64,000 nucleotides of DNA from Candidatus Omnitrophota bacterium (GCA_029261035.1 JAJDCD010000025.1:194926-258925), one strand, 5' to 3'; positions 42,560 to 63,999 are shown, counted from the stretch's first letter. The notes: generated by a model not told the origin, from the sequence alone. Made by a program: numbers and translations.

Positions 42560-43414
42560 ATGGACCTCAAAAAAAATATACCTATGCTAAAAACTACGGA
42601 ACAAATTCAAATTAAGCCTTCAAAAGGCTGGGTTTCTCTAAATCTCAAAGAAATTTGGAAATTTAGGGAATTGCTTTACTTTCTAACCTGGAGAGATATC
42701 AAGGTTAGGTACAAGCAAACAGCCATTGGTGTAATGTGGGTTCTATTACAACCCTTATTTACGATGCTCTTATTCAGTCTTATTTTTGGACGCTTAGCAA
42801 AAATTCCTTCTGATGGTATTCCCTATCCCGCGTTTATTTTTTCAGGATTATTACCCTGGCTTCTATTTGCAAAAGCACTCACAGACGCCAGTACAAGTTT
42901 GGTTTCCAATGAACAGATTATTACAAAGGTCTATTTCCCAAGAGTCATTGTGCCCACATCTGCTGTTCTCGCAGGAGTTATGGACTTCCTAATTGCATCT
43001 TGTTTACTGCTTGGACTTTTATTATTTTATGGAATTGTTCCTAACTGGAATATTTTAGCACTCCCTTTCTTTGTCCTCATGACTATTTTATGCGCTTTAG
43101 GTGTTGGTTTTTGGCTGTGTGCCTTAGATGTAGTTTACAGAGATGTTCGCTACACAATTCCCTTCTTAACTCAACTCTGGTTTTTTGGGACACCTATTGT
43201 TTACCCCTCTAGCCTCATTCCAGATCAATGGAAATTATTATTTGGAATGAACCCAATGGCTGGAGTTATTGAGGGGTTTCGCTGGTCTCTCCTAGGCAAA
43301 GAAGATTTTCCTTTTTTAATTATTCTTTCATCTTCTATTACTGTCATTTTTCTTTTCACGACAGGCTTGTACTATTTTAGAAGAATGGAAAAAAACTTTT
43401 CGGATATCATTTAA
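42560..43414 (+). CDS. wzm: ABC-2 type polysaccharide exporter permease
   Basis: It has six predicted transmembrane helices and the ABC-2 family sequence ELLYFLTWRDIKVRYKQTAIGVMWVLLQP. It is followed 1 nt later by the ATPase gene. Confidence 0.85.
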   Translation: MDLKKNIPMLKTTEQIQIKPSKGWVSLNLKEIWKFRELLYFLTWRDIKVRYKQTAIGVMWVLLQPLFTMLLFSLIFGRLAKIPSDGIPYPAFIFSGLLPWLLFAKALTDASTSLVSNEQIITKVYFPRVIVPTSAVLAGVMDFLIASCLLLGLLLFYGIVPNWNILALPFFVLMTILCALGVGFWLCALDVVYRDVRYTIPFLTQLWFFGTPIVYPSSLIPDQWKLLFGMNPMAGVIEGFRWSLLGKEDFPFLIILSSSITVIFLFTTGLYYFRRMEKNFSDII

Positions 43415-43415
43415 A

Positions 43416-44711
43416 ATGACAACCAAAGTTATTGAAGTTAGCAAAATTGCAAAGCGTTATCGGATTGGTGGACTCGAACCCTACAAAGCGTTCAGAGACA
43501 CTTTAACTTCTTTTCTAAAAAACCCGTTCACCTCAAAAAAAACTGCAAAAGACTCTAAAGTACACTGGGCCCTTGATGATGTTTCTTTTGATGTAAACCA
43601 AGGGGATGTTTTAGGGATTATTGGAAGAAATGGTTCGGGTAAAACAACGCTTCTCAAGGTGTTATCTCGAGTTACCTCCCCTACTCGAGGGAAAGCTTTG
43701 ATTAAAGGAAATGTAGCTGCCTTGTTAGAAGTCGGCACTGGATTCCATCCCGAACTTACAGGAAGAGAAAACATATATTTAAGTGGCGCAATTTTAGGGA
43801 TGAAACGAAAAGAAATTAAAAGAAAATTTGACGAAATCGTAGCATTCTCTGAGGTAGAAAAATTTATCGATACTCCTTTAAAACGTTATTCCACTGGAAT
43901 GAAAGTAAGGCTCGCCTTTGCCGTTCCAGCTCACTTAGAATCTGAAATTCTATTTATCGATGAAGTATTAGCCGTGGGTGACAACAATTTTCAAAAAAAA
44001 TGTCTTGGCAAAATGGAAAATGCCAGCAAAGAAGGTAAAACAGCTCTCTTTGTCTCTCACAGTATGCCTGCAGTGCTTAGACTCTGTAACCGAGTGATTT
44101 TATTAAATAATGGAAAGTTAATTAAAGACGGACCTTCTAATGAAGTCATTAGATCCTATTTAGAATCTGAAATGGGAAGCACAGCAAAACGATCTTGGAA
44201 TAATTTTAATGAAGCACCTGGGGACGATATCGCACGAATCAAATCTATTCAAGTTTTAAATCAAGAAGGAGTAAATACGGAAACTTTAGATATAACAAAA
44301 CCTTTTTCAGTAGAAGTGGAATATTGGAAAAATAACCCTAGAAGCAATCCTTCCGCTCTTCTATCGATATACAATCAAGAAGGAATTTGTCTTTTTACTA
44401 CCAGCGAACTGATTCATGATGAATGGAAAAAACAACCGAATGAATCTAGTTTAGTAAAAAGCACCTGCCACATTCCTGGAAACTTTTTTGCAGAAGGGCA
44501 ATTTTCTATAACGCTTATACTAGGTTCGTTTAACCCTAATTTAGCACACGCATGTGAAAAGGATGCCGTTGCGTTTCAAATAGTAGATAAAAATGACGGA
44601 AACAGCGTGCGTGGTGAGTATGCAAATGAATGGGCCGGTGTTGTTCGTCCTTGTTTACAATGGAACACAAAATATGAACCCCTTAAAAAACAGGTTGATT
44701 GTATCCAATAA
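43416..44711 (+). CDS. wzt: Polysaccharide ABC exporter ATP-binding protein with a C-terminal extension (Wzt-like)
   Basis: It has Walker A GRNGSGKTT, signature YSTGMKVRLAFA and Walker B ILFIDEVLAVGD. An extra C-terminal domain of about 180 aa, in the position of the Wzt glycan-terminus-binding domain, brings the total to 431 aa. Confidence 0.85.
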   Translation: MTTKVIEVSKIAKRYRIGGLEPYKAFRDTLTSFLKNPFTSKKTAKDSKVHWALDDVSFDVNQGDVLGIIGRNGSGKTTLLKVLSRVTSPTRGKALIKGNVAALLEVGTGFHPELTGRENIYLSGAILGMKRKEIKRKFDEIVAFSEVEKFIDTPLKRYSTGMKVRLAFAVPAHLESEILFIDEVLAVGDNNFQKKCLGKMENASKEGKTALFVSHSMPAVLRLCNRVILLNNGKLIKDGPSNEVIRSYLESEMGSTAKRSWNNFNEAPGDDIARIKSIQVLNQEGVNTETLDITKPFSVEVEYWKNNPRSNPSALLSIYNQEGICLFTTSELIHDEWKKQPNESSLVKSTCHIPGNFFAEGQFSITLILGSFNPNLAHACEKDAVAFQIVDKNDGNSVRGEYANEWAGVVRPCLQWNTKYEPLKKQVDCIQ

Positions 44712-45709
44712 TGAAACAGTTCATTCCCTTAGAACACAAAATAGCAAATGGCATAGAGTATTTAAGAAGAAATTTGCCTGAGGCTATTAGAAAAGCAACT
44801 CCTCGCTGGGTCAAAGATAAAATTATTGACATAGAATGGTTTTTGTTTCGCTTTAAATACAAAAAAGCAAAAACAGAACTTAACAAACCCAAAAAACCAA
44901 TCATTGTGATTAGCATTCCAAAAAACGGCACTAACCTCATTAAAATGTTTCTTCTGTCTATACCAGGAATGTCCTCTAGAACTCACTTTCCAAGTGGAAT
45001 CCAATCTATTTCTAATCTAAAAACGACTATGGATTCTAACAAAAAAATCCTTTTAAAAGCAAAACCAGGAGAAGTTTATAGTTGGCACTTACCTTATGAT
45101 AAAGAATTCTCTAAATGGCTAGATGATCATAATTTTAAAAAAATATTTATCTATAGAGACCCTAGAGATTACGCAGTTTCTTTGCTTCACTTTATTATGA
45201 ATAACCCTCCCCACTTACCTCCTTACCCTTTTTTAGATATGTTTTCTAAACTAAACTCCGATGACGAAAGACTGATGGCTTGCATCTGTGGTTATGGAGA
45301 AAATGCAGAAAAATCAATAATCACCGAAAACCACCTCCCCAATATAAAACAAATTTACAATCAATATATGGGTTGGATTAATGATGACAATACCTTTTGC
45401 CTTAAATACGAAGAGCTCTGTTATAGCGAAACAAGTAAGGAGCAAATGTTTAAAACTTCATCAAACATACTCCACTTCCTTGGACTTAACCCTAAAATTA
45501 CATCCGATGAAACGCTCCAAGAACTTTTAACAACGGGTTTAGACCATAAAAAATCTCCTACGTTTCGATCTGGAAAAATTGGTGCGTGGAAAAAATGCTT
45601 TAGCCCGAATCACATAGAAGCATTCCATCAGATTTCTGGCAGCTTATTAAATCAACTGAATTATAAAGAAGAGGAAACGAACTCAAAAAATGAATATTCT
45701 AGGACTTAA
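44699..45709 (+). CDS. Sulfotransferase-family protein (PAPS-dependent fold)
   Basis: It has a 5'-PSB-like loop ISIPKNGTNL and a 3'-PB-like motif IYRDPRDYAVS. It overlaps the wzt 3' end by 13 nt. Confidence 0.65.
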   Translation: MYPIMKQFIPLEHKIANGIEYLRRNLPEAIRKATPRWVKDKIIDIEWFLFRFKYKKAKTELNKPKKPIIVISIPKNGTNLIKMFLLSIPGMSSRTHFPSGIQSISNLKTTMDSNKKILLKAKPGEVYSWHLPYDKEFSKWLDDHNFKKIFIYRDPRDYAVSLLHFIMNNPPHLPPYPFLDMFSKLNSDDERLMACICGYGENAEKSIITENHLPNIKQIYNQYMGWINDDNTFCLKYEELCYSETSKEQMFKTSSNILHFLGLNPKITSDETLQELLTTGLDHKKSPTFRSGKIGAWKKCFSPNHIEAFHQISGSLLNQLNYKEEETNSKNEYSRT

Positions 45710-47417
45710 TGCTTATCATGGGGATGCTTCCGCATGTATCGTAAAAGATGGTAAAGTTATCTCTGCTTGCGAAGAAGAACGTTTAAATCGAATTAAACAT
45801 TGTGCAGGGTTCCCGTCCCTCGCTATTCAAAGTTGTTTAAAAGAATCCAATCTAACCATAGATGATATTGATTTCATTAGCATATCCAGAAACCCAAAAG
45901 CAAACTTATCAAAAAAGATTTTTTTTACTATTAAAAAAGGGGCTGGGCTATCCCATTTAATTAAATCCAGAATTAAAAATGCTGCTCGCATCATTAGTCT
46001 TAAAGACGAAATCAAAAATGCGCTTAACCTCTCTTCTCCTCCAAGAGCTAAAATAGAAAATGTGGAGCATCATCTAGCTCATATGGCGAGCGCTTTCTAC
46101 CCTTCTCCTTTCGATCAAGCTGCTATTCTTTCTATTGATGGTTTTGGCGATTTTGTTAGCACCAAATGGGGTGTTGGAAACCAAGAAGACATTCAAGTTT
46201 TGGGGCAAGTAGAGTTTCCTCACTCAATGGGAGTACTTTATACTGCAATCACACAATACCTTGGTTTTCCTCATTATGGGGATGAATACAAAGTAATGGG
46301 GCTAGCCTCTTACGGCAAACCTCTTTACATGGAACAATTTAAAGACATTGTTAAAATTGATGAAAAAAAAGGATTTGAACTTAACCTAGATTATTTTATC
46401 CACCATACCGAAGGTGTGGAAATGAATTGGGAAAAAGGCTATCCAGAACTAAGTACGTGCTTCTCTTCAAAGCTCGTTGAAATTTTTGGCCCTTCCCGAA
46501 AACCCAAAGAAGAAACAACCGACCATCACAGGAACATTGCCTCTTCTTTACAAAAAACGTTCGAAGAAGTTTATTTCCATATTCTCAATATGCTCTATGA
46601 AAAAACTCAAACTAAAAATTTATGTCTCGCTGGTGGTTGCGCGCTCAATGGAGTTGCTAATGGCCAGATTCATGAAAAAACACCTTTTGAAAATATTTAC
46701 ATTCAACCTGCCGCAGCAGATTCGGGCACATCTATAGGATCCGCTCTCTATGTCGAACACGCTATTTTAAAGAACAAGAGAAAAAACCAAATGAAACACG
46801 CTTATCTTGGACCTGCTTTTTCCTCCGAACAAATTAAAAAAACCTTAGAAGAAAACAATCTCACTTATAAAGAGTTTGATAATGATAGTATGCTGGAAAA
46901 AACAGCCCAATCTCTTTCCGAAGGAAAAATCATTGGTTGGTTTCAAGACGAAATGGAATTTGGCCCACGTGCTTTAGGAAACCGAAGTCTTATTGCAGAT
47001 CCTAGAAAAAAAGAAATGAAAGATATCTTAAATTCGCGTATTAAACGTAGAGAAGGCTTTAGACCTTTCGCACCCTCCATCCTAGAGGAAAATATTAATG
47101 ATTACTTCGAACACAATCACCTCGTTCCTTTTATGACTCAGGTTTATAAAGTCAAAAAAGAAAAAAGAGAGCAAATACCTGCTGTAACTCATATTGATGG
47201 AACAGGAAGACTTCAAACAGTAAACAAAGAAACAAACCCTAAATACTGGAATCTTATTAATACGTTCAAAGAACTAACAGGCGTTCCTGTGCTCCTCAAC
47301 ACCTCTTTTAACGAAAACGAGCCTATTGTTTGTACTCCTCAAGATGCCATCAACTGTTTTCAACGCGCGGATATGGACTGCTTAGCCATCGATCACTTTT
47401 GGGTCGAAAAATCTTAG
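45690..47417 (+). CDS. Carbamoyltransferase (NodU/CmcH family)
   Basis: MNILGLNAYHGDASACIVKDGKVISACEEERLNRIKH is the conserved N-terminus of NodU/NovN/TobZ-type carbamoyltransferases. The full length is about 575 aa. Confidence 0.85.
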   Translation: MNILGLNAYHGDASACIVKDGKVISACEEERLNRIKHCAGFPSLAIQSCLKESNLTIDDIDFISISRNPKANLSKKIFFTIKKGAGLSHLIKSRIKNAARIISLKDEIKNALNLSSPPRAKIENVEHHLAHMASAFYPSPFDQAAILSIDGFGDFVSTKWGVGNQEDIQVLGQVEFPHSMGVLYTAITQYLGFPHYGDEYKVMGLASYGKPLYMEQFKDIVKIDEKKGFELNLDYFIHHTEGVEMNWEKGYPELSTCFSSKLVEIFGPSRKPKEETTDHHRNIASSLQKTFEEVYFHILNMLYEKTQTKNLCLAGGCALNGVANGQIHEKTPFENIYIQPAAADSGTSIGSALYVEHAILKNKRKNQMKHAYLGPAFSSEQIKKTLEENNLTYKEFDNDSMLEKTAQSLSEGKIIGWFQDEMEFGPRALGNRSLIADPRKKEMKDILNSRIKRREGFRPFAPSILEENINDYFEHNHLVPFMTQVYKVKKEKREQIPAVTHIDGTGRLQTVNKETNPKYWNLINTFKELTGVPVLLNTSFNENEPIVCTPQDAINCFQRADMDCLAIDHFWVEKS

Positions 47418-47420: not shown

Positions 47421-48104
47421 ATGTTTCAATCCTTTAGGTTTAATCTAAGAAGATTTTTTTCTCGATCCCCTTTTCTTTTCCATGCTATTTATGCGTTAGC
47501 CCCATACAACAAAATCCGAATGGTTCAAGAAAAAACAGATATTGTTATTGAAGGCTTTCCTCGTTCCGGAAATACATTTACTGTATTTGCATTCAAGCAA
47601 GCTCAAATAAAAGAACCCTTCATCTCTCACCATCTACATTCTCAATCTCAAATTATTAAAGCCTGCAAAAACAATGTGCCAACATGCGTTCTCATCAGAA
47701 ATCCCAAAGATGCCGTCTCATCCTTAGTAATTAAATATCCCCAAATTTCTCCAAAAGATGCTTTAAAAGCTTACATTGAATTTTACAAAGATATACTCCC
47801 CTTTAAAAATCAATTTGTAATCGCTCCTTACGAAAAGGCCATTCATCAATTGGATCAAGTGATTAAACAGATTAACCAAAAATTTAAGACAGAATTTATT
47901 CCCTTTGAACATTCCACAGAAAAGCTTACTGAAGTTAAAAAAACAATACTGGAAATAGATCAAAAGGTTAATAAGAATAGGGAAAACAAAAGAACAGAGC
48001 CTTCTCCTATAAAAGAAAAGCTGAAAAAGGAGCTCTCCTTTGCCCCGTACCGGGAGGAGCTACAGGAAGCAGAGAGTATCTATTATGAATATGTATCAAG
48101 CTAA
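47421..48104 (+). CDS. Second sulfotransferase-fold protein
   Basis: It has a PSB-like loop GFPRSGNTF and a 3'-PB-like motif LIRNPKDAVSS. It is 3 nt downstream of the carbamoyltransferase gene. Confidence 0.55.
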   Translation: MFQSFRFNLRRFFSRSPFLFHAIYALAPYNKIRMVQEKTDIVIEGFPRSGNTFTVFAFKQAQIKEPFISHHLHSQSQIIKACKNNVPTCVLIRNPKDAVSSLVIKYPQISPKDALKAYIEFYKDILPFKNQFVIAPYEKAIHQLDQVIKQINQKFKTEFIPFEHSTEKLTEVKKTILEIDQKVNKNRENKRTEPSPIKEKLKKELSFAPYREELQEAESIYYEYVSS

Positions 48105-48192: not shown

Positions 48193-48310
48193 GTAATAAG
48201 GCATAACGATATGAAGCATACTTTTTTGTGCGGGCTCAAAATAGGGCTAGAAATATAACTATAAACACTTATAATAGTCCCATCTTTTTACATAATTGGA
48301 GGTAAATACA

Positions 48311-49378
48311 ATGTCTTTTTGGGAAAATAGAAAAGTTTTAGTAACAGGTGGTGCTTCTTTTATAGGCTCTAATTTAGCCGATTCTTTAGTATCTAAAGGA
48401 GCTCAAGTACGGGTTGTGGATAACTTATCCAGCGGCCAATTAGAAAACATACAACACCTTATAGATGCAGGTTCTGTCGAATTCTTAGAGGGTGACCTTC
48501 TAGAACCTTCTGTTGCTCAGCAAGCTGTTAAAGGTATTAATACCGTTTTTCATCTAGCTGCTGACCATGGGGGTAGAGGCTATGTTGATTTAAAACAAGT
48601 TCAGTGTTCAACCAATCTTATCTTAGATGGCCTTCTTTTCAAAGAAGCTCATAAGGCGGGTGTTGAAAAGGTCGTATTCGCCTCTTCCGGTTGTGCTTAT
48701 CCAAATTACATTCAAACGGACCCAAAAGAAATGCTTTACCTTACTGAAGATAAAGTAGGTCCTCCCTATGACGCAGATAATATGTATGGCTGGGCAAAAC
48801 TAATGGCTGAACTGACTTTGCAATATTATCACAAGCAGTATGGTATGAAAGCAGCTTCTTGTCGTTACTTTACCGTTTATGGACCTCGCGGAAAAGAAAA
48901 TCATGCTGTTATCGCTATGATTGCTCGTTCCTTTATCGGAGAAAACCCGTATGAAGTATGGGGTAATGGCGAGCAAATTAGAAACTGGACTTATGTGGAT
49001 GACATCGTAGAAGGCACGATATTAGCAGGTGAAAAAATTGATGATGGTACCGCTGTTAACTTGGGAACGATGGAACGTATTCGAGTTTTAGATGCCGTTC
49101 AAATGGTTTTTGAAATGACAGGTCATCAAGCAGACATCAAACTTCTAAAAGATATGCCTACGGGCCCTCTCAATCGTGTTGCGGATAACAGCCTAGCAAA
49201 ACAACTCCTCGGCTGGGAACCAAAATACACCTTTAAAGACGGCTTAAAGAAAACCATCGATTGGTATTTTTCTACAAAAAATAAAGAAACGGTTAAAGCA
49301 ACCTTAAGCGAAACCCTCATTGAAAGAAAGCACGATAAGGGACAAGAAAAACTCGTTAGTTCATCGGAGGCAAAATAA
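48311..49378 (+). CDS. NAD-dependent epimerase/dehydratase (extended SDR; UDP-sugar 4-epimerase or UDP-glucuronate decarboxylase-like)
   Basis: It has VLVTGGASFIGSNL and the YxxxK motif (NMYGWAK). The ATG at 48311 is preceded by GGAGG. The ORF-track start at 48296 is a TTG. Confidence 0.85.
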   Translation: MSFWENRKVLVTGGASFIGSNLADSLVSKGAQVRVVDNLSSGQLENIQHLIDAGSVEFLEGDLLEPSVAQQAVKGINTVFHLAADHGGRGYVDLKQVQCSTNLILDGLLFKEAHKAGVEKVVFASSGCAYPNYIQTDPKEMLYLTEDKVGPPYDADNMYGWAKLMAELTLQYYHKQYGMKAASCRYFTVYGPRGKENHAVIAMIARSFIGENPYEVWGNGEQIRNWTYVDDIVEGTILAGEKIDDGTAVNLGTMERIRVLDAVQMVFEMTGHQADIKLLKDMPTGPLNRVADNSLAKQLLGWEPKYTFKDGLKKTIDWYFSTKNKETVKATLSETLIERKHDKGQEKLVSSSEAK

Positions 49379-50727
49379 TGAAATTATCGGTTATCGGTTT
49401 AGGAAAGCTAGGACTTCCCCTTTCTGTGGCCTTAGCACAAAAAGGTCATGAAGTCATTGGTGTTGATATCTCACCTTCCGTTATTGAGAAACTCAACCAA
49501 GGCATTCCTCATCTTGAAGAACCTCAAGTTGAAGTTCTTTTAAAAGAAGCTGTGGAAAATAAAAAATTTACAGCAACCGACAACTTTGAAGAAGCAATTC
49601 AAAATACAGAAATGAGTTTTATTTGTGTTAACACACCCGATAAAAACGATTTCGAAATGGATTTATCTCAACTTTCTTCTTCCTGTGAAATGCTTGGCTC
49701 TGCCTTAAAGAACAAAAATGATTTTCATACCTTTGTAATCAACTCTACCATTGTTCCTGAAACAGCAGATCAAGTAGCCATTCCAACTTTAGAAAAATTT
49801 TCTGATAAGAAACTAGGAGAAGGCTTTGGACTTTGCGTTAACCCTGTCTTTATTGCTCTCAGTACGGTAGTTAAAGACTTACTTCACCCTCCGGTTGTCA
49901 CTTTGGGTTCTTCAGATAAAAAAACAGCTTCTTTTATGGAAGCTTTCTATAAATCGTTTAATGAAAATGGCGCAAAGGTAATACAGACAACCCCTATTAT
50001 GGCTGAAATTATTAAACTAGCGCATAATGCCTATTGCACCTCAAAAATGGCTTTTATCAATGAGATCTCAGCTTTATGCTCCAATACCCCAGGGGCAGAT
50101 GTCAGCGCTATGAGTGAGTTTTTTAGAGCAGGCGGAGAGCGAACAGGCCGTTTCTTAGAAGCAGGAATGGGTTTTGGTGGTCCTTGCTTCCCTCGTGATT
50201 TAAAATTCTTCATCAAATATATCCAAGATAAAGTTTCAGCAAGTCCTTTAATTGAAGCTATTGATACATCCAATAGTGGTTACGCTGTTCGAATTGTAGA
50301 ACTCATAGAACAAGAGCTAGGCTCTTTAAAAAACAAAACGGTCTCTGTTCTAGGGCTCGCTTATAAAGTAAATGCTGACATTACCGAGCGTTCTTTTTCT
50401 CTTAGATTGATCGAAGTCCTGCACGAAAAAGGAGCTACTATAAAATCTTTTGATCCTAGAGTAAAACAAGTTCCAGAAATTCATTGTCAAACCCCTTTCG
50501 AAATTAATAATTCTGTTGAGGGTTCTTTAAAGGATGCTAGTTTTTGCATCATTGCCACCGCATGGCAAGATTTTAAAGACCTAAATCCAGAAATTTTCAA
50601 ACAGCATATGAGTGAAGCAAACCTCTTTGATCCTTGGAGACTATTTAACACTCCAGAGGCTAAACAACACTTTAACCAATACGTAGGACTTGGAGTAAAA
50701 CAAGAACTCAGTTTAGCTTCCATCTAA
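49378..50727 (+). CDS. ugd: UDP-glucose/GDP-mannose 6-dehydrogenase family nucleotide-sugar dehydrogenase
   Basis: It has an N-terminal NAD-binding motif KLSVIGLGKLGLPLSVALA and the catalytic-cysteine motif GFGGPCFPRD. TAATG overlaps the upstream stop. Confidence 0.85.
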   Translation: MKLSVIGLGKLGLPLSVALAQKGHEVIGVDISPSVIEKLNQGIPHLEEPQVEVLLKEAVENKKFTATDNFEEAIQNTEMSFICVNTPDKNDFEMDLSQLSSSCEMLGSALKNKNDFHTFVINSTIVPETADQVAIPTLEKFSDKKLGEGFGLCVNPVFIALSTVVKDLLHPPVVTLGSSDKKTASFMEAFYKSFNENGAKVIQTTPIMAEIIKLAHNAYCTSKMAFINEISALCSNTPGADVSAMSEFFRAGGERTGRFLEAGMGFGGPCFPRDLKFFIKYIQDKVSASPLIEAIDTSNSGYAVRIVELIEQELGSLKNKTVSVLGLAYKVNADITERSFSLRLIEVLHEKGATIKSFDPRVKQVPEIHCQTPFEINNSVEGSLKDASFCIIATAWQDFKDLNPEIFKQHMSEANLFDPWRLFNTPEAKQHFNQYVGLGVKQELSLASI

Positions 50728-50749: not shown

Positions 50750-51529
50750 ATGGAATCTCTTAAAAATAAAGTTATGGATTTTTGGAATGAAACTCCTTGT
50801 AGTTTGAGAAACAAAGGAGCTAATTCTGAAGGAAGCAAAGAAAGCTTTCAACTGATAGCTGAGGATCGTTATCAAGGCGATTCTTTTATGAAAGACGTTG
50901 TGCCTTTTCATGCCATGAAAGGATTAAAAACCTTAGAAGTAGGCTGTGGTTTAGGAACCGACCTCGTTCAATTCGCTAAAGCAGAAGCGAACACTTACGC
51001 TCTTGATTTAAGCAAAAACTCCCTCTATCTTGCAAAACAAAACTTAGCAAACCACAACCTCTCTTCGAAGCTAATTCATGCAGATGCAGAAAACATCCCC
51101 TATGAAGATGCGTCTTTTGACCTTATCTATTCCTGGGGCTGTCTTCACCATACAGAGACTCCAGAAAAAGCTTTCAAAGAGCTTTATCGCATTCTCAAAC
51201 CTGGCGGAAAAATACTGATTATGCTGTATCACAAGTATTCTCTTGTCACTCTTCAGGCCTATTTACTGTACGGGCTTTTTAAAGGGAAACCTTTCTGTTC
51301 CTTAGATGAGATTCTAGCAAATCATATAGAAAGTCCAGGAACTAAAGCTTATAGTATGAATCAAATAAAAAAATTATTTGCCGCATTTACTGCTTTAGAG
51401 GTGAAACCGATTATCACTCGTTATGATTTAAGGTACGGTAGATTCAGCTACCTCCCTTCATGGGTAGGGAAATGCCTTCCTCCGCGATGGGGATGGAATC
51501 TGATTATTTCTGGAGAAAAATTAAAATAA
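50750..51529 (+). CDS. Class I SAM-dependent methyltransferase (Methyltransf_11-like)
   Basis: It has LEVGCGLGTDLVQF ... LDLS ... FDLIYSWGCLHH ... LKPGGKILI. Confidence 0.75.
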   Translation: MESLKNKVMDFWNETPCSLRNKGANSEGSKESFQLIAEDRYQGDSFMKDVVPFHAMKGLKTLEVGCGLGTDLVQFAKAEANTYALDLSKNSLYLAKQNLANHNLSSKLIHADAENIPYEDASFDLIYSWGCLHHTETPEKAFKELYRILKPGGKILIMLYHKYSLVTLQAYLLYGLFKGKPFCSLDEILANHIESPGTKAYSMNQIKKLFAAFTALEVKPIITRYDLRYGRFSYLPSWVGKCLPPRWGWNLIISGEKLK

Positions 51530-55748: not shown

Positions 55749-57389
55749 TTAAAAATAAACTTTCCCTATAACAATACCCATAAAAAAGAGTAAAGGAACA
55801 GTTAAAATAACAGCTAAGAAAATAAATGCATTCCACCTTTTCTTTGAGTGAATTGAAAGCTGCTGAATAGCCTTTTGAACACTTACTTGGAAATGAGTAT
55901 AATTAATAGGCTTAGTCAAAACATCCAAAACAGAAGAGTCCATTGTCTTAGCAATCTCTTTAAATTGATCAGGATAAGCCATTAATAGAAATTGCGAATG
56001 AGGGCTATATGTTTTAAGTGTTTGGTGAAACAAAGAGTCTGTTTCCGATTTTAAAACATAATCAGAAATGATAATTGGAAAGGTTCCTTGCGAACAAAGC
56101 TTCAAAGCTTCATCTTCACTTCGAGTACAACTGATATTTAAATAACTATCAAACTCATTCCAATTCACACCCTCCCCTGTTAAATGATCCTTATTTTCAA
56201 AAACCAATACTCGAGGTCGGTTTTCTCTTTCTGGTATAGGAAGAATAAAATCTTTAACACCTTCATTTGGAGCTGCATCTTTCTGGGTGGAAAATGGCAT
56301 CTGAGTCGCCGGAAATTTTCTGAAAGCAATAAAGAAAATAGCTCCCATATAGACTAAAATAAGTGCCACATATTGATATCGGGTTGCCGTCAAAATAAAA
56401 CCAATAAGTCCAAAACCTAAAGAAAGAATATAAAGCAGGATTACGGCTTTTCGCTTTGTCATTCCTTGAGCAAGCAATCTATGATGGATATGATTTCGAT
56501 CAGCAAAAAACACTCTAGTCCATGAAAACATCTTTTGGTAAAACGTTTTTGATTGCACCCATTGGTTATACCACCTTCTGTAGACCGTAGAAAGGGTATC
56601 CAGTATAGGCAGTCCTAATACCGCAATAGGAATCGCAATAGCCACAGCAGTTGAGCTCTTCTGTGAACTCATTATAGATAAAGTAGCTAACATAAAGCCC
56701 AAGAACAAACTCCCTGTATCCCCCATAAAGATCGAGGCTGGAGAAAAATTATATCTTAAAAATCCTATAATGCTTCCTGCCAAAACCACAGAAATAACGG
56801 CACCTTGTATATTCCCTAGATACAGTGCGATAACAAAAATAGTTAAACTTGCAATAAGAGCAATGCCCGCCGCTAAACCATCCACCCCATCTATCAGATT
56901 AATTGCATTAATAATGAAGACAAACCAAAAAACAGTCACAGGAACACTGAAATAACCCAATAAAACTGTTTCGCTATTCCATGGATTAGTAATACCTTCA
57001 ATCACAAAACCAAAATGAACCATAATCAAGGCTGAAAGAATTTGCACAATCAGTTTAAATTTATAATTCACATGATACTTATCATCTATAATGCCACAAA
57101 CAATTAATGGCAGAGCTCCTAACAACAAATAAACGCCTTTAATACTAGGCATTAAGGGTTGTTGATTCCAAACATAAAAAATTAGAGTGCTAAATCCAAT
57201 CGTTAAGAAAAAGGATACAAAAATAGCAAGTCCACCCATGGACGGAAATTCCCCTTCGTGAGATTTTCTGTCACTCGGCCTATCCACAACCTGGAAATGA
57301 AGGGCTAACTTCAATACAAAAGGTGTTAAGACAAAAGAAATACCTGCTGCAATCAAAAAAGGAAATCCATAATAAAATAACTGATTCAT
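55749..57389 (-). CDS. WecA/MraY-family polyprenyl-phosphate N-acetylhexosamine-1-phosphate transferase with an additional C-terminal cytoplasmic domain and terminal transmembrane helix
   Basis: It has 10-11 transmembrane helices with DDxxD-like DDKYH and the conserved VDGVDGLAAG motif. These are followed by an extra ~150-aa soluble region (RPRVLVFENKDHLTGEG ... PIIISDYVLKSETD ... LDVLTKP) and a final transmembrane helix. Confidence 0.75.
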   Translation of the reverse strand: MNQLFYYGFPFLIAAGISFVLTPFVLKLALHFQVVDRPSDRKSHEGEFPSMGGLAIFVSFFLTIGFSTLIFYVWNQQPLMPSIKGVYLLLGALPLIVCGIIDDKYHVNYKFKLIVQILSALIMVHFGFVIEGITNPWNSETVLLGYFSVPVTVFWFVFIINAINLIDGVDGLAAGIALIASLTIFVIALYLGNIQGAVISVVLAGSIIGFLRYNFSPASIFMGDTGSLFLGFMLATLSIMSSQKSSTAVAIAIPIAVLGLPILDTLSTVYRRWYNQWVQSKTFYQKMFSWTRVFFADRNHIHHRLLAQGMTKRKAVILLYILSLGFGLIGFILTATRYQYVALILVYMGAIFFIAFRKFPATQMPFSTQKDAAPNEGVKDFILPIPERENRPRVLVFENKDHLTGEGVNWNEFDSYLNISCTRSEDEALKLCSQGTFPIIISDYVLKSETDSLFHQTLKTYSPHSQFLLMAYPDQFKEIAKTMDSSVLDVLTKPINYTHFQVSVQKAIQQLSIHSKKRWNAFIFLAVILTVPLLFFMGIVIGKVYF

Positions 57390-57393: not shown

Positions 57394-58722
57394 CTATTTA
57401 AGCTCCATACTCATTTTTAAAAGTGCTGCAAATAGTATCCAATAAACAAAACAAAAAGCATTCCCGATCGAATAAATCCAACTTTCAAAGAAAGCTAAAC
57501 ATAGACCCACAATCACAGAGGAAAGCAAAGACAAAAAAAGTAAGAAATCTGAATGTCGGCGAAAGCGATACAATGAAAAAGCACTTTTTACAACAAACAA
57601 AAAGATTGGGAAAAAGAAAAGGAGAGCTCCTAGCAAACCTAGCTGACTTACGAGCCCCAAATAAGAATTATGTGCATAAGCACCAGAATGTTCTTCGAAA
57701 ATAATATCAAACTTAAAAAATATTTGATCTTCCGTGCCAAACCCATATCCCAGCCAAGGACGATAAGCAATTAATCTTAAAATTTCGTCCCACGCTTCTA
57801 GACGTCCACTCCCAGAGCTCAGGGTGTCCATTCGCACAATTTGAGCTATAAGGGAAGCCCCAAAAAGCTCTAAATAGAGCATAAACAGGCCCGCAACAAA
57901 AAATATAATAGTTAAAACAACATGTTTTTTGTTCTCAAAATAGTGCCAAAGAAAAAAACCCAAGCCTATTGCAGCGCTTAAAAAGCCTGACCTTGATTGA
58001 CTTAGAACAAGAGATAAAAGTAGAACTCCTAAAAAAATGAGTGCCCATTTTTTTCTTGTTGTTAAATAGAAGTATAAAGCCACAGGAGACAAAACAGCGG
58101 ACAAAAGTGCCACTGAATTAGGATTCGTGAAAATGCCTAAAAACCGGCCTCCCCCAACAAAAAAGAACCCAATGACAAAGACAACGAAAACAATTTTTAA
58201 TATATCACTAAGAATTAATTTAATTTTATCTGTACTATCCATATATTGCCAAACGGCAATAAAGATAGAAAAGTAGAAGAGTAGAATAGAAATACTTCTT
58301 TGAAAAGTAAGCTCTGGATCTATTGAGTAAACCTGAGAGTAAAAAGCTAAAGCAATAAAATTAAGGCCTAAAACATCCAACAATCTCACCTTTACTGATT
58401 TAACATCAGACAAAACCATTGAAATTGCTTTCAAAGAAACCACACCTAAAAACACCCATCTTAAATTAAGAAAAGCAGCTTGGATAGATAAGTGTGCACT
58501 CGATGCTAGCATAAATGCCAATGCTGTAGCTGCAATTAAATAGCGCAGGTCTAAAAAATATAAGACCACCAAAACGATTCCCAAAACCATAGCACCCATC
58601 ATCTGCCAGTTACTAGCAGCTATAGTCGTGCCTAGATAATAAGGCGCTAAAATAAGAGCCACTCCAAATAAGCAAACCCAAGTGAGTGACAAAATAACTG
58701 ATTTCGAACCAAATGTTTGCAT
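57394..58722 (-). CDS. O-antigen ligase / Wzy-like polytopic membrane protein
   Basis: It has about 12 transmembrane helices and a large periplasmic loop near the C-terminal third (GASLIAQIVRMDTLSSGSGRLEAWDE), as in WaaL/O-antigen-ligase family proteins. Confidence 0.6.
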   Translation of the reverse strand: MQTFGSKSVILSLTWVCLFGVALILAPYYLGTTIAASNWQMMGAMVLGIVLVVLYFLDLRYLIAATALAFMLASSAHLSIQAAFLNLRWVFLGVVSLKAISMVLSDVKSVKVRLLDVLGLNFIALAFYSQVYSIDPELTFQRSISILLFYFSIFIAVWQYMDSTDKIKLILSDILKIVFVVFVIGFFFVGGGRFLGIFTNPNSVALLSAVLSPVALYFYLTTRKKWALIFLGVLLLSLVLSQSRSGFLSAAIGLGFFLWHYFENKKHVVLTIIFFVAGLFMLYLELFGASLIAQIVRMDTLSSGSGRLEAWDEILRLIAYRPWLGYGFGTEDQIFFKFDIIFEEHSGAYAHNSYLGLVSQLGLLGALLFFFPIFLFVVKSAFSLYRFRRHSDFLLFLSLLSSVIVGLCLAFFESWIYSIGNAFCFVYWILFAALLKMSMELK

Positions 58723-58728: not shown

Positions 58729-59901
58729 CTACTCTTTAGAACTCAAAGTAAATTCTTCTATATTTAAAGATTCAATCGTTTCCAAAAAACCTTCAGCACA
58801 TATCTCGGGAGAGTTTTGTGCTATTATTTCCAAGGACTTTTCTCCCATCTTTGAACACAAATCACGATCATTTATTAGTAATTTTATTTTCGCTAACAAC
58901 TGAGATACATCCCCCGGTTTAAATAAATACCCATTTTGACCTTCAAGAACCAAATCTGGCGCAGACCCTATATCTTCAGAAACAATTACAGGTAAACCAC
59001 AAGCCATAGCCTCATTAAGAACTAAACCCCACTCGTCTCTAAACGAAGGCATGATAAAAACATCAGAAATTCCATAATAAAAAGGGAGTTCTTCTTGCTG
59101 CTTAAAACCTTCAAAAAACACGTTTTTCAAATTATTTTTCTTACAATACTGCTTAAACTCTTCTTCATCCGGCCCATCTCCAACTAATACAAGCCCTATG
59201 CTTTCCTTATCCTTTAATTTTTCATACGCCTCTATTAGCGTCATGAAACCTTTGTAATGCAATAAACGGCCCACAGATACTAATATTCTTTTAGGATAAC
59301 CTCTGTTTTGCTTAATCTCTTCCTTAGTTTTTCGAACTTCAATTACCTTATTAGAAAATAATTCGTTATCTACAGCATTTCTTGCCGTTTTTATCTTCTC
59401 TTCTGGAATACCAAAGCTCTTCATATATTGAAAAGAGCTTTTCCCAGGAACAATACAACGACTCGCTTTTTTTGAAATGTATTTCCTATAAAATTGTGCG
59501 AGGGGCCATTTTACACGAACACTCTTTTCATGACTCTCACACCAAAGAATAAATTTTTTCTTAAATAATTTACAATACAAAAAAGCAACCAAATAAGAAG
59601 GATGTTGATATCCTCCACAGATAACCACATCCGGATTCCCTTGTGTCAAAAGCTTCCAAAGAGATGGGTTGAAAAAAATAGGAAATCTCAAAGGTAGACT
59701 CAATTTAAAACCTCTGATAATCTCATAATCAAAATCCATATCTTCTTCATGCATTTGCCATTTTCTCCCACCTGATATTCCGGAAAGAAATAGGACTTTA
59801 AAATCAAACTGATTCTCTTTTGCAATATGATTAAATACAGGGACTCTATAGGGAGAGACGATCTCTGTTAATAAAAACACCTTCTTTTCTTTATTATTCA
59901 T
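58729..59901 (-). CDS. Glycosyltransferase family 4
   Basis: It has the GT1/GT4 C-terminal domain GRLLHYKGF ... PSFRDEWGLVLNEAMACGLPVIVSE. Confidence 0.8.
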   Translation of the reverse strand: MNNKEKKVFLLTEIVSPYRVPVFNHIAKENQFDFKVLFLSGISGGRKWQMHEEDMDFDYEIIRGFKLSLPLRFPIFFNPSLWKLLTQGNPDVVICGGYQHPSYLVAFLYCKLFKKKFILWCESHEKSVRVKWPLAQFYRKYISKKASRCIVPGKSSFQYMKSFGIPEEKIKTARNAVDNELFSNKVIEVRKTKEEIKQNRGYPKRILVSVGRLLHYKGFMTLIEAYEKLKDKESIGLVLVGDGPDEEEFKQYCKKNNLKNVFFEGFKQQEELPFYYGISDVFIMPSFRDEWGLVLNEAMACGLPVIVSEDIGSAPDLVLEGQNGYLFKPGDVSQLLAKIKLLINDRDLCSKMGEKSLEIIAQNSPEICAEGFLETIESLNIEEFTLSSKE

Positions 59902-59916: not shown

Positions 59917-61035
59917 TCAATTTACAACCTGTTCTATTGAATCTAAAATTTGATGAGCCGTTCTACTCCAATTAAATGTCGCAGCTCTCTCTATCCCTTT
60001 TCTTCTTAAATCATTCTTAAATTCAGAATTTGAAAAAAGATGACACAATGTATCCGAATAAGCTTCTACGTCCATGGGGTCATGTAATATTCCAGCATCT
60101 CCAACCACCTCAGGAATCGAAGTAACATTGGACGCAATTAACGGGACTCCTGAAGCCATCGCTTCCAGCAACTGAAATCCAAACCCTTCAAATAAAGACG
60201 GGTCCAAATAAGCACTAGCTCCTTGATATAAGCGAATCAGCTCCTCTCCCACCGCAAACTTTCTAAAGAGTATAGAGGAATCCTCTTCAATGCCTAACTG
60301 CTCTGCAGTAGTTCCAACAATTACGAGCATTACCTGTAAACTTGTTTTTTTTCTAAATTGTCGATAAGCACGAATAACTGTTTCTGTATTATCTCTTAAA
60401 TCTCCTGTCGAAAAATGTAAGACATACTCCTGCCCCCCACTCACTTCTTCTCTAATCTTCTGAAGATTATCTAGATTATCTTCAAATACAAACTCTCTAT
60501 CCTGAGCAGCCTGAACAACCCTAATCTGATCAGATGCAATGCCGTATTTTTCTACCAAGTCTTGTTTGGTAAAGTCCGAGCTCGTTACAACCAACTTTGT
60601 TTTTCTGATGCTTTTTGGAAATATTCGTTCTAAATAAACCCTAGCCACTGAGCGAAGCAAACTAAATTTCTTTTGTTTCGCTCTATCCAATTGAATCCGG
60701 TAATCAGGAACTTCAAAAAGATAAATGATAAAGGGAGTATCTCCAATCAAGGGGATACAATCATAAGCTGTATGAACAATATCTAACTTATGCTTCCTTA
60801 TAAGCAAAGGAAGTTGAAACTGTTCCCAAACAGACCTCATCATCATCGAAACACCAACGCACTGCCAGTTCGGTTTATTTATATTAAAGCGTTCTGACAA
60901 AGATGAATTATAAAAAACAACAAACTCATGATTCGATGCAAGTTCTGATAAGGCTTCAACGATATTTTTTTGATAGCGTGTAATCCCTTTTCCTTGCGAC
61001 AAAAGACTTGTTGCGTCTATCCCTATACGTGCCAT
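59917..61035 (-). CDS. Glycosyltransferase family 4
   Basis: It has ARIGIDATSL ... PSLFEGFGFQLLEAMASGVPLIASN. Confidence 0.8.
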   Translation of the reverse strand: MARIGIDATSLLSQGKGITRYQKNIVEALSELASNHEFVVFYNSSLSERFNINKPNWQCVGVSMMMRSVWEQFQLPLLIRKHKLDIVHTAYDCIPLIGDTPFIIYLFEVPDYRIQLDRAKQKKFSLLRSVARVYLERIFPKSIRKTKLVVTSSDFTKQDLVEKYGIASDQIRVVQAAQDREFVFEDNLDNLQKIREEVSGGQEYVLHFSTGDLRDNTETVIRAYRQFRKKTSLQVMLVIVGTTAEQLGIEEDSSILFRKFAVGEELIRLYQGASAYLDPSLFEGFGFQLLEAMASGVPLIASNVTSIPEVVGDAGILHDPMDVEAYSDTLCHLFSNSEFKNDLRRKGIERAATFNWSRTAHQILDSIEQVVN

Positions 61036-61038: not shown

Positions 61039-62112
61039 TTACTTATTCACCGCATTCAGTTCGGCATTTTTAGTAAACACATCCAAATGATCTTGAATCC
61101 AGGTCACAAGCTGGTGAACTCCAGCTTCCGGAGAAGTAGTTGGAGACCAATTTAATTCTTTTTTTGCTTTATTTATATTAGAAATATAAACTTTTTGATC
61201 ATTAGGACGCCAATCCCCATACTCCACTTGGATTTTTTTACTGAGCTGTTGCTCCAAAACCTCTTTCAACTCTAAAAGAGAAATGGTGTTTTCTTCACCC
61301 CCACCCATATTTACAACTAAACTCTTCTCGGAATTTTGAATAAAAGCATCAAAGGCATTAACAAGATCCGTAACAAACAAAATATCTCTCACTTGCTTTC
61401 CATCTCCATAGAAATTAATTGTTTTATCTAAAAGTGCTGCAATAGAAAACCAAGCTAACCAACCCTGATCTTCAAGCCCAAATTGACGCGTCCCATAAAT
61501 GCAAGACATGCGAAAAACGCCCACTTTCAAGCCGTAGTACGAGGCATAGTCTTGCATGTAAATATCTGCAGCAAGTTTAGAACACCCGTAAGGAGATCTC
61601 TCACAATGATCAATGCTAAACTCTTCTGGAATCCCCTCTTTATACCGCTTATCCGAAAACTGATAACGAGTCCCACACTCCTCTAGAGCAATATCATTAA
61701 CGTTTTTCCCGTAAACCTTGTTCGTTGAACAAAAAACAATCGAAGGCTTTTTTTCTTGCTTTCGAGCTGCTTCTAATACTTGAAACGAGCCTAATGCATT
61801 AATTTTGAAATCCACATCAGGTTGTTCGTAAGAAGAAGTCACAGCCGTCTGTCCTGCGGTATGAACGACAGCATCTGCGCCCTTCATCGAAACCTCCAGA
61901 AGATCTTGATCTAAAATATCTCCTTGGATCAAATGAACATTATCAAATTGCTTTAAGTAGTCCCAATTGAAGTTATATTGCAAATTCTTTTGCCCAAGCA
62001 AATGCATTCGAGAAAGGTTGTCATAAACAACAACTTCAACTCCTTTTTTAGCATAAAATTCGGCTACATGACTTCCTATAAATCCAGCCCCGCCTGTAAT
62101 AAATATTTTCAC
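61039..62112 (-). CDS. NAD-dependent epimerase/dehydratase (extended SDR)
   Basis: It has KIFITGGAGFIGSHV and YxxxK (YGCSKLAAD). Confidence 0.85.
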   Translation of the reverse strand: MKIFITGGAGFIGSHVAEFYAKKGVEVVVYDNLSRMHLLGQKNLQYNFNWDYLKQFDNVHLIQGDILDQDLLEVSMKGADAVVHTAGQTAVTSSYEQPDVDFKINALGSFQVLEAARKQEKKPSIVFCSTNKVYGKNVNDIALEECGTRYQFSDKRYKEGIPEEFSIDHCERSPYGCSKLAADIYMQDYASYYGLKVGVFRMSCIYGTRQFGLEDQGWLAWFSIAALLDKTINFYGDGKQVRDILFVTDLVNAFDAFIQNSEKSLVVNMGGGEENTISLLELKEVLEQQLSKKIQVEYGDWRPNDQKVYISNINKAKKELNWSPTTSPEAGVHQLVTWIQDHLDVFTKNAELNAVNK

Positions 62113-63248
62113 GATTTCGACCCCTTTATATTCATTTGATCATATAATTTTAAAATCTTATCAACCATTTGACTCTCTGAAAAAAAATCTTTTACTCTTT
62201 GATATCCACGCAGACCCATCTCAGTCCCTTTAGGGGCATCACCTCCTATTTGGGTGATGGCTTTACACAAAGAGGAAACATCGTTAGGAGGAATCAAGAG
62301 ACCCGTTTCTTTGTCTGCAACTAATTCGCAAACACCTCCCACATCCGTAGCAACAACGGGCTTTTTTAAAGCCATTGCCTCTAGTATCGTAATTGGAAGA
62401 CCCTCTAACTTTGACGGTAAAACAAAACAATTAAAAGAGTTCATCAGATCATAAATATCAGATCGATGCCCTGTAAAGAAAATGCAAGAATTTAGATTTA
62501 ACTGCGAAACCAAATCTCTTAACTCTTTTTCATAAGCTCCATTTTCTTCAAGATCTTTTCCTACAATAATAAACCGGTAATCTTTATTCTGCTTTATCAA
62601 CTGACTCGCTGCCAGTATAAATTCTTTCTGCCCTTTAATGGGACATAAGCGCCCAACAGTTCCAATCACCTTACAATCCACCTCAATGCCAAACTCCTCT
62701 AACACTGCTTCTCTAGATCTTAGAAACTGACATTTGTTCAAATCAATTCCATTATGGATCACATCAACACGATCTTTAGATATTCCCTGAACATCCAAGT
62801 CTTCACGCGTCGAATGAGAAATAGTTATGATTTTCTTGCACAAATACGCTGTTAAATTATCAAACAGACGTTGATATACTTGAATTAAAAAATGATCTCT
62901 AAATTTATTGGGTATATGTATATGAGCTATAATTGGCACCCCCGCAAGCGTTGCTCCCAACCTTGCTTGAATGTTAGCCGAAACCATAGCGTGCGTATGT
63001 ACTAAATCAATGTTCTCTTTCTTAAGCAAAGAAGAAAACTTGAATGCGTTACTAAAATGGTATGTCTTTTTAAAGGGAATGTAATAAACAGGAATTCCTT
63101 CTTTTAATAAGATTTGAGTAAAATCCCCATCATAAGGGGATACAACAACAATCTCATCTCCTCTTTTTATTGAAGCATCGATAATTTGCTTACAAACCTT
63201 TTGACCTCCAGAAACATCTCCACCAACAATCAAATGAGCTATCTTCAT
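62109..63248 (-). CDS. Glycosyltransferase family 4
   Basis: It has KIAHLIVGGDVSGGQKV ... PSKLEGLPITILEAMALKKPVVATDVGG. Confidence 0.8.
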   Translation of the reverse strand: MKIAHLIVGGDVSGGQKVCKQIIDASIKRGDEIVVVSPYDGDFTQILLKEGIPVYYIPFKKTYHFSNAFKFSSLLKKENIDLVHTHAMVSANIQARLGATLAGVPIIAHIHIPNKFRDHFLIQVYQRLFDNLTAYLCKKIITISHSTREDLDVQGISKDRVDVIHNGIDLNKCQFLRSREAVLEEFGIEVDCKVIGTVGRLCPIKGQKEFILAASQLIKQNKDYRFIIVGKDLEENGAYEKELRDLVSQLNLNSCIFFTGHRSDIYDLMNSFNCFVLPSKLEGLPITILEAMALKKPVVATDVGGVCELVADKETGLLIPPNDVSSLCKAITQIGGDAPKGTEMGLRGYQRVKDFFSESQMVDKILKLYDQMNIKGSKS

Positions 63249-63252
63249 TAAA

Positions 63253-63999
63253 TCAATTCACCTTTTTGGGTTTCTTACAAATCCCAATAATATAATCCGC
63301 ACGTTTAAAATCATTTTCCAAAAAACTAAAATCAGAAATATCCATATCACTAAAAGGGGTTGTTCCTACCGCTTTTACAACTGGGTTCGTCCACTTTAAG
63401 AGGTTGAACTTATGTCTTAATTTAAAGAAATCCAGTTTCTGCAATATCTGGTGAAATCGACTTTGTTTTCTTTGTTGTCCAAACAAACTAATTTCAGAAA
63501 AGTAATTTTGTAATAATAACTCAAAATCTTTAGGGGACCATTCTTGAATATGATAGGGGTTTTCAGGAGATAAAGTTGTCTTAGAAACGTAAGGAGAAGA
63601 AACAATGTATACCCCTTCATCTTTCAAGACATTCACAATATTTTTTAGGTAAGGCTCTACGGATGGTAAATGTTCTATCGTTTCGAAAGAACAAGCCACA
63701 TCAAACGGACCCCCCTCTATTTGTAGTTTACATGCATCTTGAGCAAAGAATTGAATATTATCTCTCTGATATCTCTTCTGCGCGTATTGTACGGCCTCCT
63801 CAGAAAGATCCACACCAACAACCTGTTCAGAGAATTGAGACAAATATTCACTCCCATACCCTACACCACAAGCAACATCCAAAACTCTTTTTCCCTCACA
63901 GTGATTTCGGGCAAACTCATATCGTGCTAAATGAATAGAAATAATCCCTTTAGGGGTTTTGTCTGGAATGATTCTTTCGTCAAAATCCGCTTTATTCAC
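63253..63999 (-). CDS. Class I SAM-dependent methyltransferase (the N-terminus may extend beyond the window edge)
   Basis: It has the SAM-binding motif VLDVACGVGYGSEYL ... VDLS ... FDVACSFETIEHL. The listed start at 63997-63999 is a GTG, 1 nt from the window end. Confidence 0.7.
   Translation of the reverse strand: MNKADFDERIIPDKTPKGIISIHLARYEFARNHCEGKRVLDVACGVGYGSEYLSQFSEQVVGVDLSEEAVQYAQKRYQRDNIQFFAQDACKLQIEGGPFDVACSFETIEHLPSVEPYLKNIVNVLKDEGVYIVSSPYVSKTTLSPENPYHIQEWSPKDFELLLQNYFSEISLFGQQRKQSRFHQILQKLDFFKLRHKFNLLKWTNPVVKAVGTTPFSDMDISDFSFLENDFKRADYIIGICKKPKKVN

Follow-up and report, generated by a model that had tools for sequence, protein, structure and literature searches.

The closest described counterparts of the locus analysed here are the ABC-transporter-dependent glycan systems of Escherichia coli O9a/O8 and Aquifex aeolicus, which combine an ABC-2 permease, a Wzt with a beta-sandwich Wzt_C domain, WecA-type initiation and a modifying enzyme encoded right after wzt. 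The rhizobial Nod factors offer a second point of comparison, as their sulfation (NodH/NoeE), carbamoylation (NodU/NolO) and methylation (NodS) are paired with an ABC-2 exporter (NodIJ), and individual enzymes of the locus have relatives of known structure in the O-carbamoyltransferases TobZ, NovN and GdmN and in the cytosolic sulfotransferases typified by SULT2A1. The locus lies at the right-hand end of a 64,000-nucleotide stretch of DNA from an uncultured Candidatus Omnitrophota bacterium (GCA_029261035.1 JAJDCD010000025.1:194926-258925; hereafter the window, with positions counted from its first letter). Its sequence is best read as that of a surface-glycan cassette on the chromosome, at least 24 kb long, which would operate by a conventional ABC-transporter-dependent route but add an unusual set of decorations, a reading given a probability of roughly 60%. 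The chassis and every enzyme family are already known, and the Pfam families, motifs and folds of the encoded proteins agree with the original prediction: the glycan locus is of the Wzm/Wzt type, and its candidate enzymes for sulfation, O-carbamoylation, methylation and amidation are credible ones.

A listing of open reading frames (ORFs) combined with Pfam and NCBIfam scans places the true extent of the locus from 40365 to beyond 64000. A plus-strand arm (42560-53877) encodes, in order, wzm, wzt, a sulfotransferase (ST1), a carbamoyltransferase (CT) and a second sulfotransferase-fold protein (ST2), followed after a 191-nt gap by a short-chain dehydrogenase/reductase (SDR1), ugd, a methyltransferase (MT1) and two family 4 glycosyltransferases (GT4a and GT4b). 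The convergent minus-strand arm runs from 63999 down to 53878 and encodes MT2, GT4e, SDR2, GT4d, GT4c, a Wzy_C protein, a WecA-like enzyme and AsnB, while MT0 and a DegT aminotransferase form a short divergent arm to the left of wzm. The tight overlaps of 4-20 nt that had been described are real at three junctions (20, 4 and 4 nt), but two further overlaps measure 1 nt, and the remaining junctions are gaps of 1-22 nt apart from two larger ones of 191 and 201 nt. The wzt stop and ST1 start share a TAATG junction, with the ST1 ATG at 44711, and ST1 and CT overlap by 20 nt. The stop codons of GT4b (plus) and AsnB (minus) abut at 53877/53878 with zero intergenic bases, and therefore there is no space for a terminator between the two arms.

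The exporter compares most directly with that of A. aeolicus. Wzm (42560..43414, plus strand) matches the ABC-2 permease family ABC2_membrane (PF01061, 1e-17), and Wzt (43416..44711, plus strand) joins an ABC_tran ATPase (PF00005) to a C-terminal carbohydrate-binding domain (residues ~252-431), within which residues 269-393 match Wzt_C at 38.5 bits against a Pfam cut-off of 30.4. The best sequence match of Wzt in the PDB is A. aeolicus Wzt (3e-60), and similarity to the described systems in the nucleotide-binding domain is 50-60%. The C-terminal domain gave no sequence match to the solved Wzt carbohydrate-binding domains, either as a single sequence or as a 40-sequence profile, but the top Foldseek matches of its single-sequence, low-confidence model (pLDDT 53) were 8DKY, 6O14, 2R5O and 5HNO, the Wzt carbohydrate-binding domains of A. 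aeolicus, E. coli O9a and Raoultella O12, at 8-14% identity. Likeness to the solved O9a-type domains is thus one of a low-confidence fold and not of sequence. With Wzt_C passing its cut-off and the model resembling these domains, the extension appears, as had been proposed, to be of the recognition or cap-reading kind, although its ligand cannot be inferred. Residues W10, P17, D41, N105, D140, G144, R148, G149, R160 and P161 of the domain are invariant in its subfamily; W10, R148 and R160, along with the likewise invariant W165, may contact the ligand.

The likeness to the described systems ends with the genes that follow wzt. The locus differs from E. coli O9a/O8 in having neither a WbdD-like kinase/methyltransferase nor a WbbB-like Kdo-transferase, and from both O9a and A. 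aeolicus in placing two sulfotransferases and a carbamoyltransferase after wzt. A WbdD-type terminator was not recognised, as a sulfotransferase follows wzt and a Pfam scan, in which coiled coils were not analysed, found no kinase domain in the locus. The proposed analogy with Nod factors reduces to a resemblance of chemistries. CT belongs to the NodU superfamily, but its 172 bits stay far short of the 1000 required for NodU, as do the 87 bits of Wzt in the case of NodI, where the cut-off is 521. No NodA, NodB or NodC family member was found among the scanned window ORFs of at least 90 aa, a few short, mostly embedded ORFs being left unscanned. Moreover, the substrate here would be a polyprenol-linked polymer built by five GT4 enzymes, in contrast to a lipochitooligosaccharide.

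ST1 (44711..45709, plus strand, 332 aa) is a sulfotransferase of the type that uses 3'-phosphoadenosine 5'-phosphosulfate (PAPS), matching Sulfotransfer_1 at 1e-16 (61 bits, cut-off 22). Its PAPS motifs are PKNGT70 of the 5'-phosphosulfate loop, H126, RDPRD149..S157 (RDPRDxxVS, 3'-phosphate) and FRSGKIGAW285, all invariant or nearly so in an alignment of ST1 with 15 homologues (16 members). ST1 retains every PAPS-binding motif, so the objection that residues in contact with PAPS had been lost does not apply. SULT2A1 and the cytosolic sulfotransferases are the nearest solved relatives of both ST1 and ST2, with the 5'-phosphosulfate-binding loop, the 3'-phosphate-binding motif and the catalytic His in common; the ST1 family profile matches SULT2A1 (8e-15) and the cytosolic enzymes over the same motifs and, as ST2 does not, over the RKGxxGxWK region as well (RKGxxGDWK in the profile match). 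The ST1 family is rare, with 41 matches among 5.8 billion proteins. Unlike the cytosolic enzymes, ST1 has a basic N-terminal extension of ~60 aa (residues 1-60, 44711-44890) that is specific to and conserved in the carbamoyltransferase-linked subfamily (consensus ..RR.SP.W.RK..PRW.KD..ID.EW.LYR) and missing from the remoter ST1-like proteins encoded after wzt elsewhere; it might serve in membrane or partner binding.

CT (45690..47417, plus strand) is an O-carbamoyltransferase of the TobZ/NodU/CmcH type, with Carbam_trans_N (214 bits) and Carbam_trans_C (249 bits) domains, and bears out the predicted NodU/CmcH-family assignment. It matches PDB entry 7xb6 (5e-95), NovN, GdmN and TobZ over its full length (E 1e-75 to 5e-95), with the same Kae1-like plus YrdC-like architecture and the HxxxH metal motif, here HHLAH at residue 127. 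These relatives act on small-molecule aglycones or aminoglycosides, whereas the genomic context of CT points to a polymer- or lipid-linked sugar.

ST2 (47421..48104, plus strand) is a minimal predicted sulfotransferase-fold protein of 227 aa that falls below the thresholds of curated families, as its Sulfotransfer_1 match (E 0.024) reaches 14.4 bits against a cut-off of 22 and it has no NCBIfam match. Two sulfotransferase-fold proteins had been predicted; ST1 is recognised by Pfam, and the case for ST2 comes from three other directions. Its family profile matches SULT2A1 (E 6e-5), its AlphaFold model, built on 36 homologues, has a pLDDT of 94, and the 50 PDB entries most similar to that model are PAPS sulfotransferases without exception, at modest template modelling scores of 0.4-0.47. 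The motifs PRSGNT and RNPKDAVSS are present, R48, S49, H73, R93 and P95 are invariant within the family, and the C-terminal GxxGxxK region of classical enzymes is lacking. A profile-profile link between ST2 and ST1 is weak (probability 12-44%) and confined to the surroundings of the 3'-phosphate-binding motif. An exhaustive search returned 4,238 matches at E<=1e-3 and, at the stricter E<=1e-30, 2,247 clusters (the relatives P0051-P0381 are ~215-275 aa long). ST2 thus represents a sizeable sulfotransferase-fold family that no Pfam or NCBIfam model covers, and a candidate new sulfotransferase family. Relatives occur in glycan loci of Nitrospira, beside a Sulfotransfer_1/3 gene, and of the cyanobacterium Stanieria, and adjoin ST1-like genes in three Planctomycetota loci. 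The Stanieria locus (L167; Stanieria sp. NIES-3757, AP017375.1 1393833-1410585) is of the exopolysaccharide type and carries a homologue 48% identical to the window Wzm, with the ST2 homologue (37% identical) ~3.6 kb downstream; between the two there is no recognisable Wzt, and a 422-aa ORF without a family is found.

The neighbourhoods of close ST1 relatives (38-46% identity) offer three informative contexts from uncultured bacteria, L002 (GCA_023247075.1 contig JAHFHD010000005), L004 (CAYJTB010000019) and L164 (a contig of SRR22388044). All three carry a CT (61-62% identical), an SDR whose identity to SDR1 reaches 70% and a GT4, for which identity to GT4a is 46-48% in L002 and L164 and 27% in L004. 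The order ST1-CT-SDR-GT4 is that of the window in L002 and L004, while in L164 a CT-SDR-GT4 block lies ~6 kb upstream of ST1. The three loci differ from the window in that their cassette lacks ST2, Ugd and MT1 and in carrying genes of the PMT_2, GDSL and radical-SAM families, none of which the window locus has. L002 and L004 export by a Polysacc_synt (Wzx) flippase instead of Wzm/Wzt, so the module does not depend on how the glycan is exported. From this synteny the cassette is best read as a transferable unit that would add a residue and decorate it, ST1-CT-(ST2)-SDR1-(Ugd-MT1)-GT4a, in which case sulfate and carbamate probably sit on the residue added by GT4a. With GT4a adding a residue and ST1 and CT modifying that same residue, the two groups would most likely be internal or side-chain decorations rather than an export signal.

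The remaining genes of the locus would supply precursors, start and extend the chain and modify it further. The predicted set of UDP-glucuronic acid (UDP-GlcA)-derived sugars is partly borne out, as Ugd and two SDRs are present, but SDR2 (61039..62112, minus strand) resembles CDP-tyvelose 2-epimerase (PDB 9rl0, 6e-78; 1orr, 2.5e-64). Ugd (49378..50727, plus strand) is a nucleotide-sugar 6-dehydrogenase by Pfam and by TIGR03026 (342 bits, cut-off 190). SDR1 (48296..49378, plus strand), recognised by Pfam and 70% identical to the SDR at the same position of the L004 cassette, is an NDP-sugar epimerase or decarboxylase whose activity cannot be assigned from sequence among a 4-epimerase, a UDP-GlcA decarboxylase and a UDP-GlcA epimerase. 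The DegT/PseC-like sugar aminotransferase (40365..41483, minus strand; PF01041, 3e-119) is present as predicted but lies to the left of the interval first proposed for the locus; its best NCBIfam matches, PseC and ArnB, are both below their cut-offs, and homologues turn up repeatedly in related Wzm/Wzt loci. In the loci L084-L163, L005-L007 and L034, considered below, genes for DegT and C-methyltransferases are frequent. Class-I S-adenosylmethionine (SAM) methyltransferases number three, not the four first counted: MT1 (50750..51529, plus strand) and MT2 (63253..63999, minus strand, with its start at the window edge), both by Pfam, and upstream MT0 (41513..42358, minus strand; Methyltransf_23/25/11). 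Two of them, rather than three, thus fall within the interval first proposed.

The five predicted GT4 enzymes are all Glycos_transf_1 proteins, namely the WcaI-like cassette member GT4a (51533..52738) and GT4b (52735..53877) on the plus strand and, on the minus strand, GT4c (58729..59901), which shares 50% identity with a GT4-GT2 fusion protein of L004, GT4d (59917..61035) and GT4e (62109..63248). Pfam likewise identifies the AsnB-type, WecA-like and ligase-like proteins that had been expected. The AsnB-type glutamine amidotransferase (53878..55746, minus strand) starts with MCGIAG at 55746 rather than at a GTG at 55836. The WecA/MraY-family polyprenol-phosphate sugar-phosphate transferase (55749..57389, minus strand; PF00953, 7e-42) reaches 138 bits with TIGR02380, below the cut-off. 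At 546 aa it has a C-terminal extension of ~190 aa with only a weak Response_reg match (E 0.003, residues 414-500), an unusual fusion for this family. The Wzy_C-domain membrane protein (57394..58722, minus strand; PF04932, 79.5 bits) has a sequence that would suit any of three roles, as WaaL-type ligase, O-oligosaccharyltransferase or polymerase.

From gene content, intact cofactor motifs, folds and cassette synteny we infer which substrates and acceptor are used, how the steps follow one another and that the product is sulfated, as follows. The WecA-like enzyme would start the chain on polyprenol phosphate and the five GT4 enzymes would extend it in the cytoplasm, using precursors from Ugd, SDR1, SDR2 and DegT. 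While the chain is still cytoplasmic, ST1 and ST2 would transfer sulfate from PAPS, CT would attach an O-carbamoyl group at the expense of carbamoyl phosphate and ATP, methyl groups would come from the class-I methyltransferases, and AsnB would probably amidate a uronic acid. The finished polymer would be exported by Wzm/Wzt, with the Wzt C-terminal domain binding some feature of it, and the Wzy_C protein would probably pass it to the final acceptor.

Several observations weigh against this account. The right end of the locus falls outside the window at 64000, the Wzy_C protein could be the polymerase of a second, Wzy-dependent pathway, and no PAPS synthesis genes (ATP sulfurylase, adenosine phosphosulfate kinase) were found in the 64-kb window. 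The first transcription unit runs from wzm and wzt on through ST1, CT and ST2, with the ST1 start overlapping the wzt stop, and WbdD in E. coli O9a occupies the equivalent position after wzt, which leaves some probability for a terminal-capping role. Finally, an ST1-like gene is the immediate 3' neighbour of wzt in L005, L006, L007 and L136, and in L034 one stands a short way downstream; these loci originate from Myxococcota, Anaerolineales, Gammaproteobacteria, Pseudomonadales and a soil metagenome, and the adjacency of wzt and a sulfotransferase therefore recurs.

The alternative that survives best, though still a doubtful one, is that two unrelated pathways lie side by side, with the plus strand from wzm to GT4b being ABC-dependent and the minus arm producing a Wzy-dependent or exosortase-type exopolysaccharide. 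Such a division would suit the convergent arms with their abutting stop codons, a Wzy_C protein acting as polymerase and a window that ends inside the locus. The best NCBIfam matches of the minus arm are PEP-CTERM/XrtA-associated (an amidotransferase at 451 bits, the stp2 glycosyltransferase at 187 bits and an exosortase-associated ligase), but all score far below their curated cut-offs. The single initiating enzyme of the window, however, belongs to the minus arm, which leaves the plus arm without one, and no Wzx flippase (Polysacc_synt) was seen among the proteins scanned within the window. In addition, the ST1-CT cassette of L004 and L164 is flanked by homologues of GT4b, GT4c, GT4d and MT2, genes drawn from both arms, which argues that the two arms form one pathway.

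It is less probable, and on balance unlikely, that ST1, CT or ST2 caps the non-reducing end and stops polymerisation, the cap being the ligand of the Wzt domain that licenses export. That a decorating enzyme acts as chain terminator was part of the original prediction, and the idea draws on the tight wzm-wzt-ST1-CT-ST2 unit with its TAATG junction, on the genuine carbohydrate-binding-type domain of Wzt and on the recurrent wzt neighbours described above, as the Wzt C-terminal domains of L005, L006, L007 and L034 are 31-35% identical to that of the window. The ST1-like genes of these wzt-linked loci are more distant from ST1, at 31-35% identity and without the N-terminal extension. The closest relatives of ST1 (38-46%), all of them CT-linked, are instead found in Wzx-flippase loci without Wzt, and when MT0, MT1 and MT2 were considered alongside ST1, CT and ST2 as candidates for a dedicated cap-making enzyme, synteny singled out none of the six.

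The Wzt domain itself proved widespread in a metagenome scan that returned 359 relatives, of which the best 80 loci (L084-L163) were examined and 53 had a sizeable ORF after wzt. This ORF encodes a 256-aa nucleotidyltransferase in 31 of the 53, often with a 4-nt overlap, a methyltransferase in several (homologues of MT1 and MT2 included) and an ST1-like protein in one. The nearest Wzt relatives, L084 and L085 (C-terminal domain 48% identical), have no sulfotransferase or carbamoyltransferase homologue. The lineage of the Wzt domain is therefore not tied to sulfation. A co-evolution of the domain with sulfotransferases, first signalled at 31-51% identity by four loci with an ST1-like gene beside wzt, dissolved once a single sulfotransferase after wzt was found among the 80 loci. 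A methyl cap is at least as plausible as a sulfate cap, given that homologues of MT1 or MT2 stand directly 3' of wzt in L153 (an MT1 homologue, 37% identical), L155 and L157 and that the A. aeolicus Wzt domain (8DKY) binds 3-O-methyl-mannose.

A published parallel cuts both ways. In the wb cluster of Aeromonas salmonicida A450, wzt is likewise succeeded by a 216-aa ORF bearing a sulfotransferase domain, with WbbB next, but no sulfate was found in the O-antigen (PMC4483657); the cluster stands as an unexplained precedent for the adjacency. The literature searched held no account of sulfate as a cap read by Wzt. On these comparative grounds the idea of a terminator has no positive support and is weakened, and its more specific form, in which ST1, CT and ST2 together build an anionic cap (sulfate or N-sulfocarbamoyl) that would end chain growth and also be bound by a Wzt domain of a new specificity class, is distinctly unlikely. 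Were it true, such a cap would be a previously unknown 'export licence' in ABC-transporter-dependent glycan assembly.

It is more improbable again that the sulfotransferase-fold proteins are inactive, or act on a lipid, small molecule or protein, and that the exported polymer is unsulfated. The unsulfated A. salmonicida product (PMC4483657), the lack of PAPS synthesis genes within the window and the missing C-terminal GxxGxxK region of ST2 would fit this possibility, but ST1 keeps all PAPS-contacting motifs and the catalytic His, the invariant residues of ST2 argue for purifying selection on a P-loop site, and both families recur in glycan loci. The original prediction had stressed the rarity of sulfated bacterial surface glycans, which is overstated at the level of genes because sulfotransferases are common in the hypervariable glycan islands of environmental bacteria; in Pelagibacter, the hypervariable region for surface polysaccharides is described as typically including them.

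Least probable of all is that ST1 sulfates the carbamate installed by CT, so that an N-sulfocarbamoyl group would replace two independent O-modifications; such a group is not known in polysaccharides. The notion parallels SxtI/SxtN of saxitoxin biosynthesis, where SxtN is a precedent for PAPS-dependent N-sulfation of a carbamoyl group (PMC7290730), and draws on ST1 and CT being adjacent or co-located in every informative close-relative context and overlapping by 20 nt in the window, but it follows purely from linkage, and two modifications on one residue explain that linkage equally well.

The left border of the locus is formed by housekeeping genes (a CBM48 ORF, glgA, thiG, leuB, asd, ribosomal protein genes and arginine and lysine biosynthesis genes), and the locus probably continues past 64000 beyond MT2. 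Recent horizontal acquisition was considered and rejected because the GC content of the locus (36.8%) matches that of the remaining window (37.4%). A promoter-like site at 42521-42549, in the 201-nt divergent intergenic region (42359..42559) just upstream of wzm, is suggestive by position alone, as scanning for promoters and terminators returned as many as chance would give. Neither Rfam nor tRNA scanning produced a match in the window, NCBIfam named nothing specific among the locus proteins above curated cut-offs, and all proteins tested are singletons at 90% identity. The best named relatives of the UvrA protein, at 62-67% identity, belong to Candidatus Omnitrophica/Omnitrophota metagenome-assembled genomes. 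Elsewhere in the window, a 115-aa stand-alone CBM48/AMPK-type glycogen-binding module (39843-40190) adjoins glgA at the left border of the locus, and a 1,553-aa protein (9823-14484) has only weak SdrD_B and Glucodextran_B matches, with two ORFs of 527 and 496 aa without a family nearby (14507-16090 and 2562-4052). Large unannotated surface-type proteins are a reported trait of the Omnitrophota.

The literature searched contained no description of a polysaccharide locus combining a sulfotransferase and a carbamoyltransferase, of sulfation with carbamoylation in a Wzm/Wzt system, of the ST1-CT-SDR-GT4a cassette or of the ST2 family, nor was a description of Omnitrophota surface chemistry found. 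The terminator hypothesis would be of interest to the O-antigen field, yet it is disfavoured by the comparative data, and the cassette and the ST2 family are the more useful outcomes in practice. Current annotation pipelines miss the ST2 family, and the ST1-CT-SDR-GT4a cassette, which moves between Wzx-type and Wzm/Wzt-type loci, is a candidate 'sulfo-carbamoyl sugar' module. The Omnitrophota are an uncultured phylum of ultra-small, probably host-dependent cells, for which a preprint describes population-variable polysaccharide cassettes, one of ~25 kb, and the present locus fits that description. Should its product be sulfated and carbamoylated, the locus would provide a gene-level blueprint for an anionic surface polymer in the Omnitrophota.

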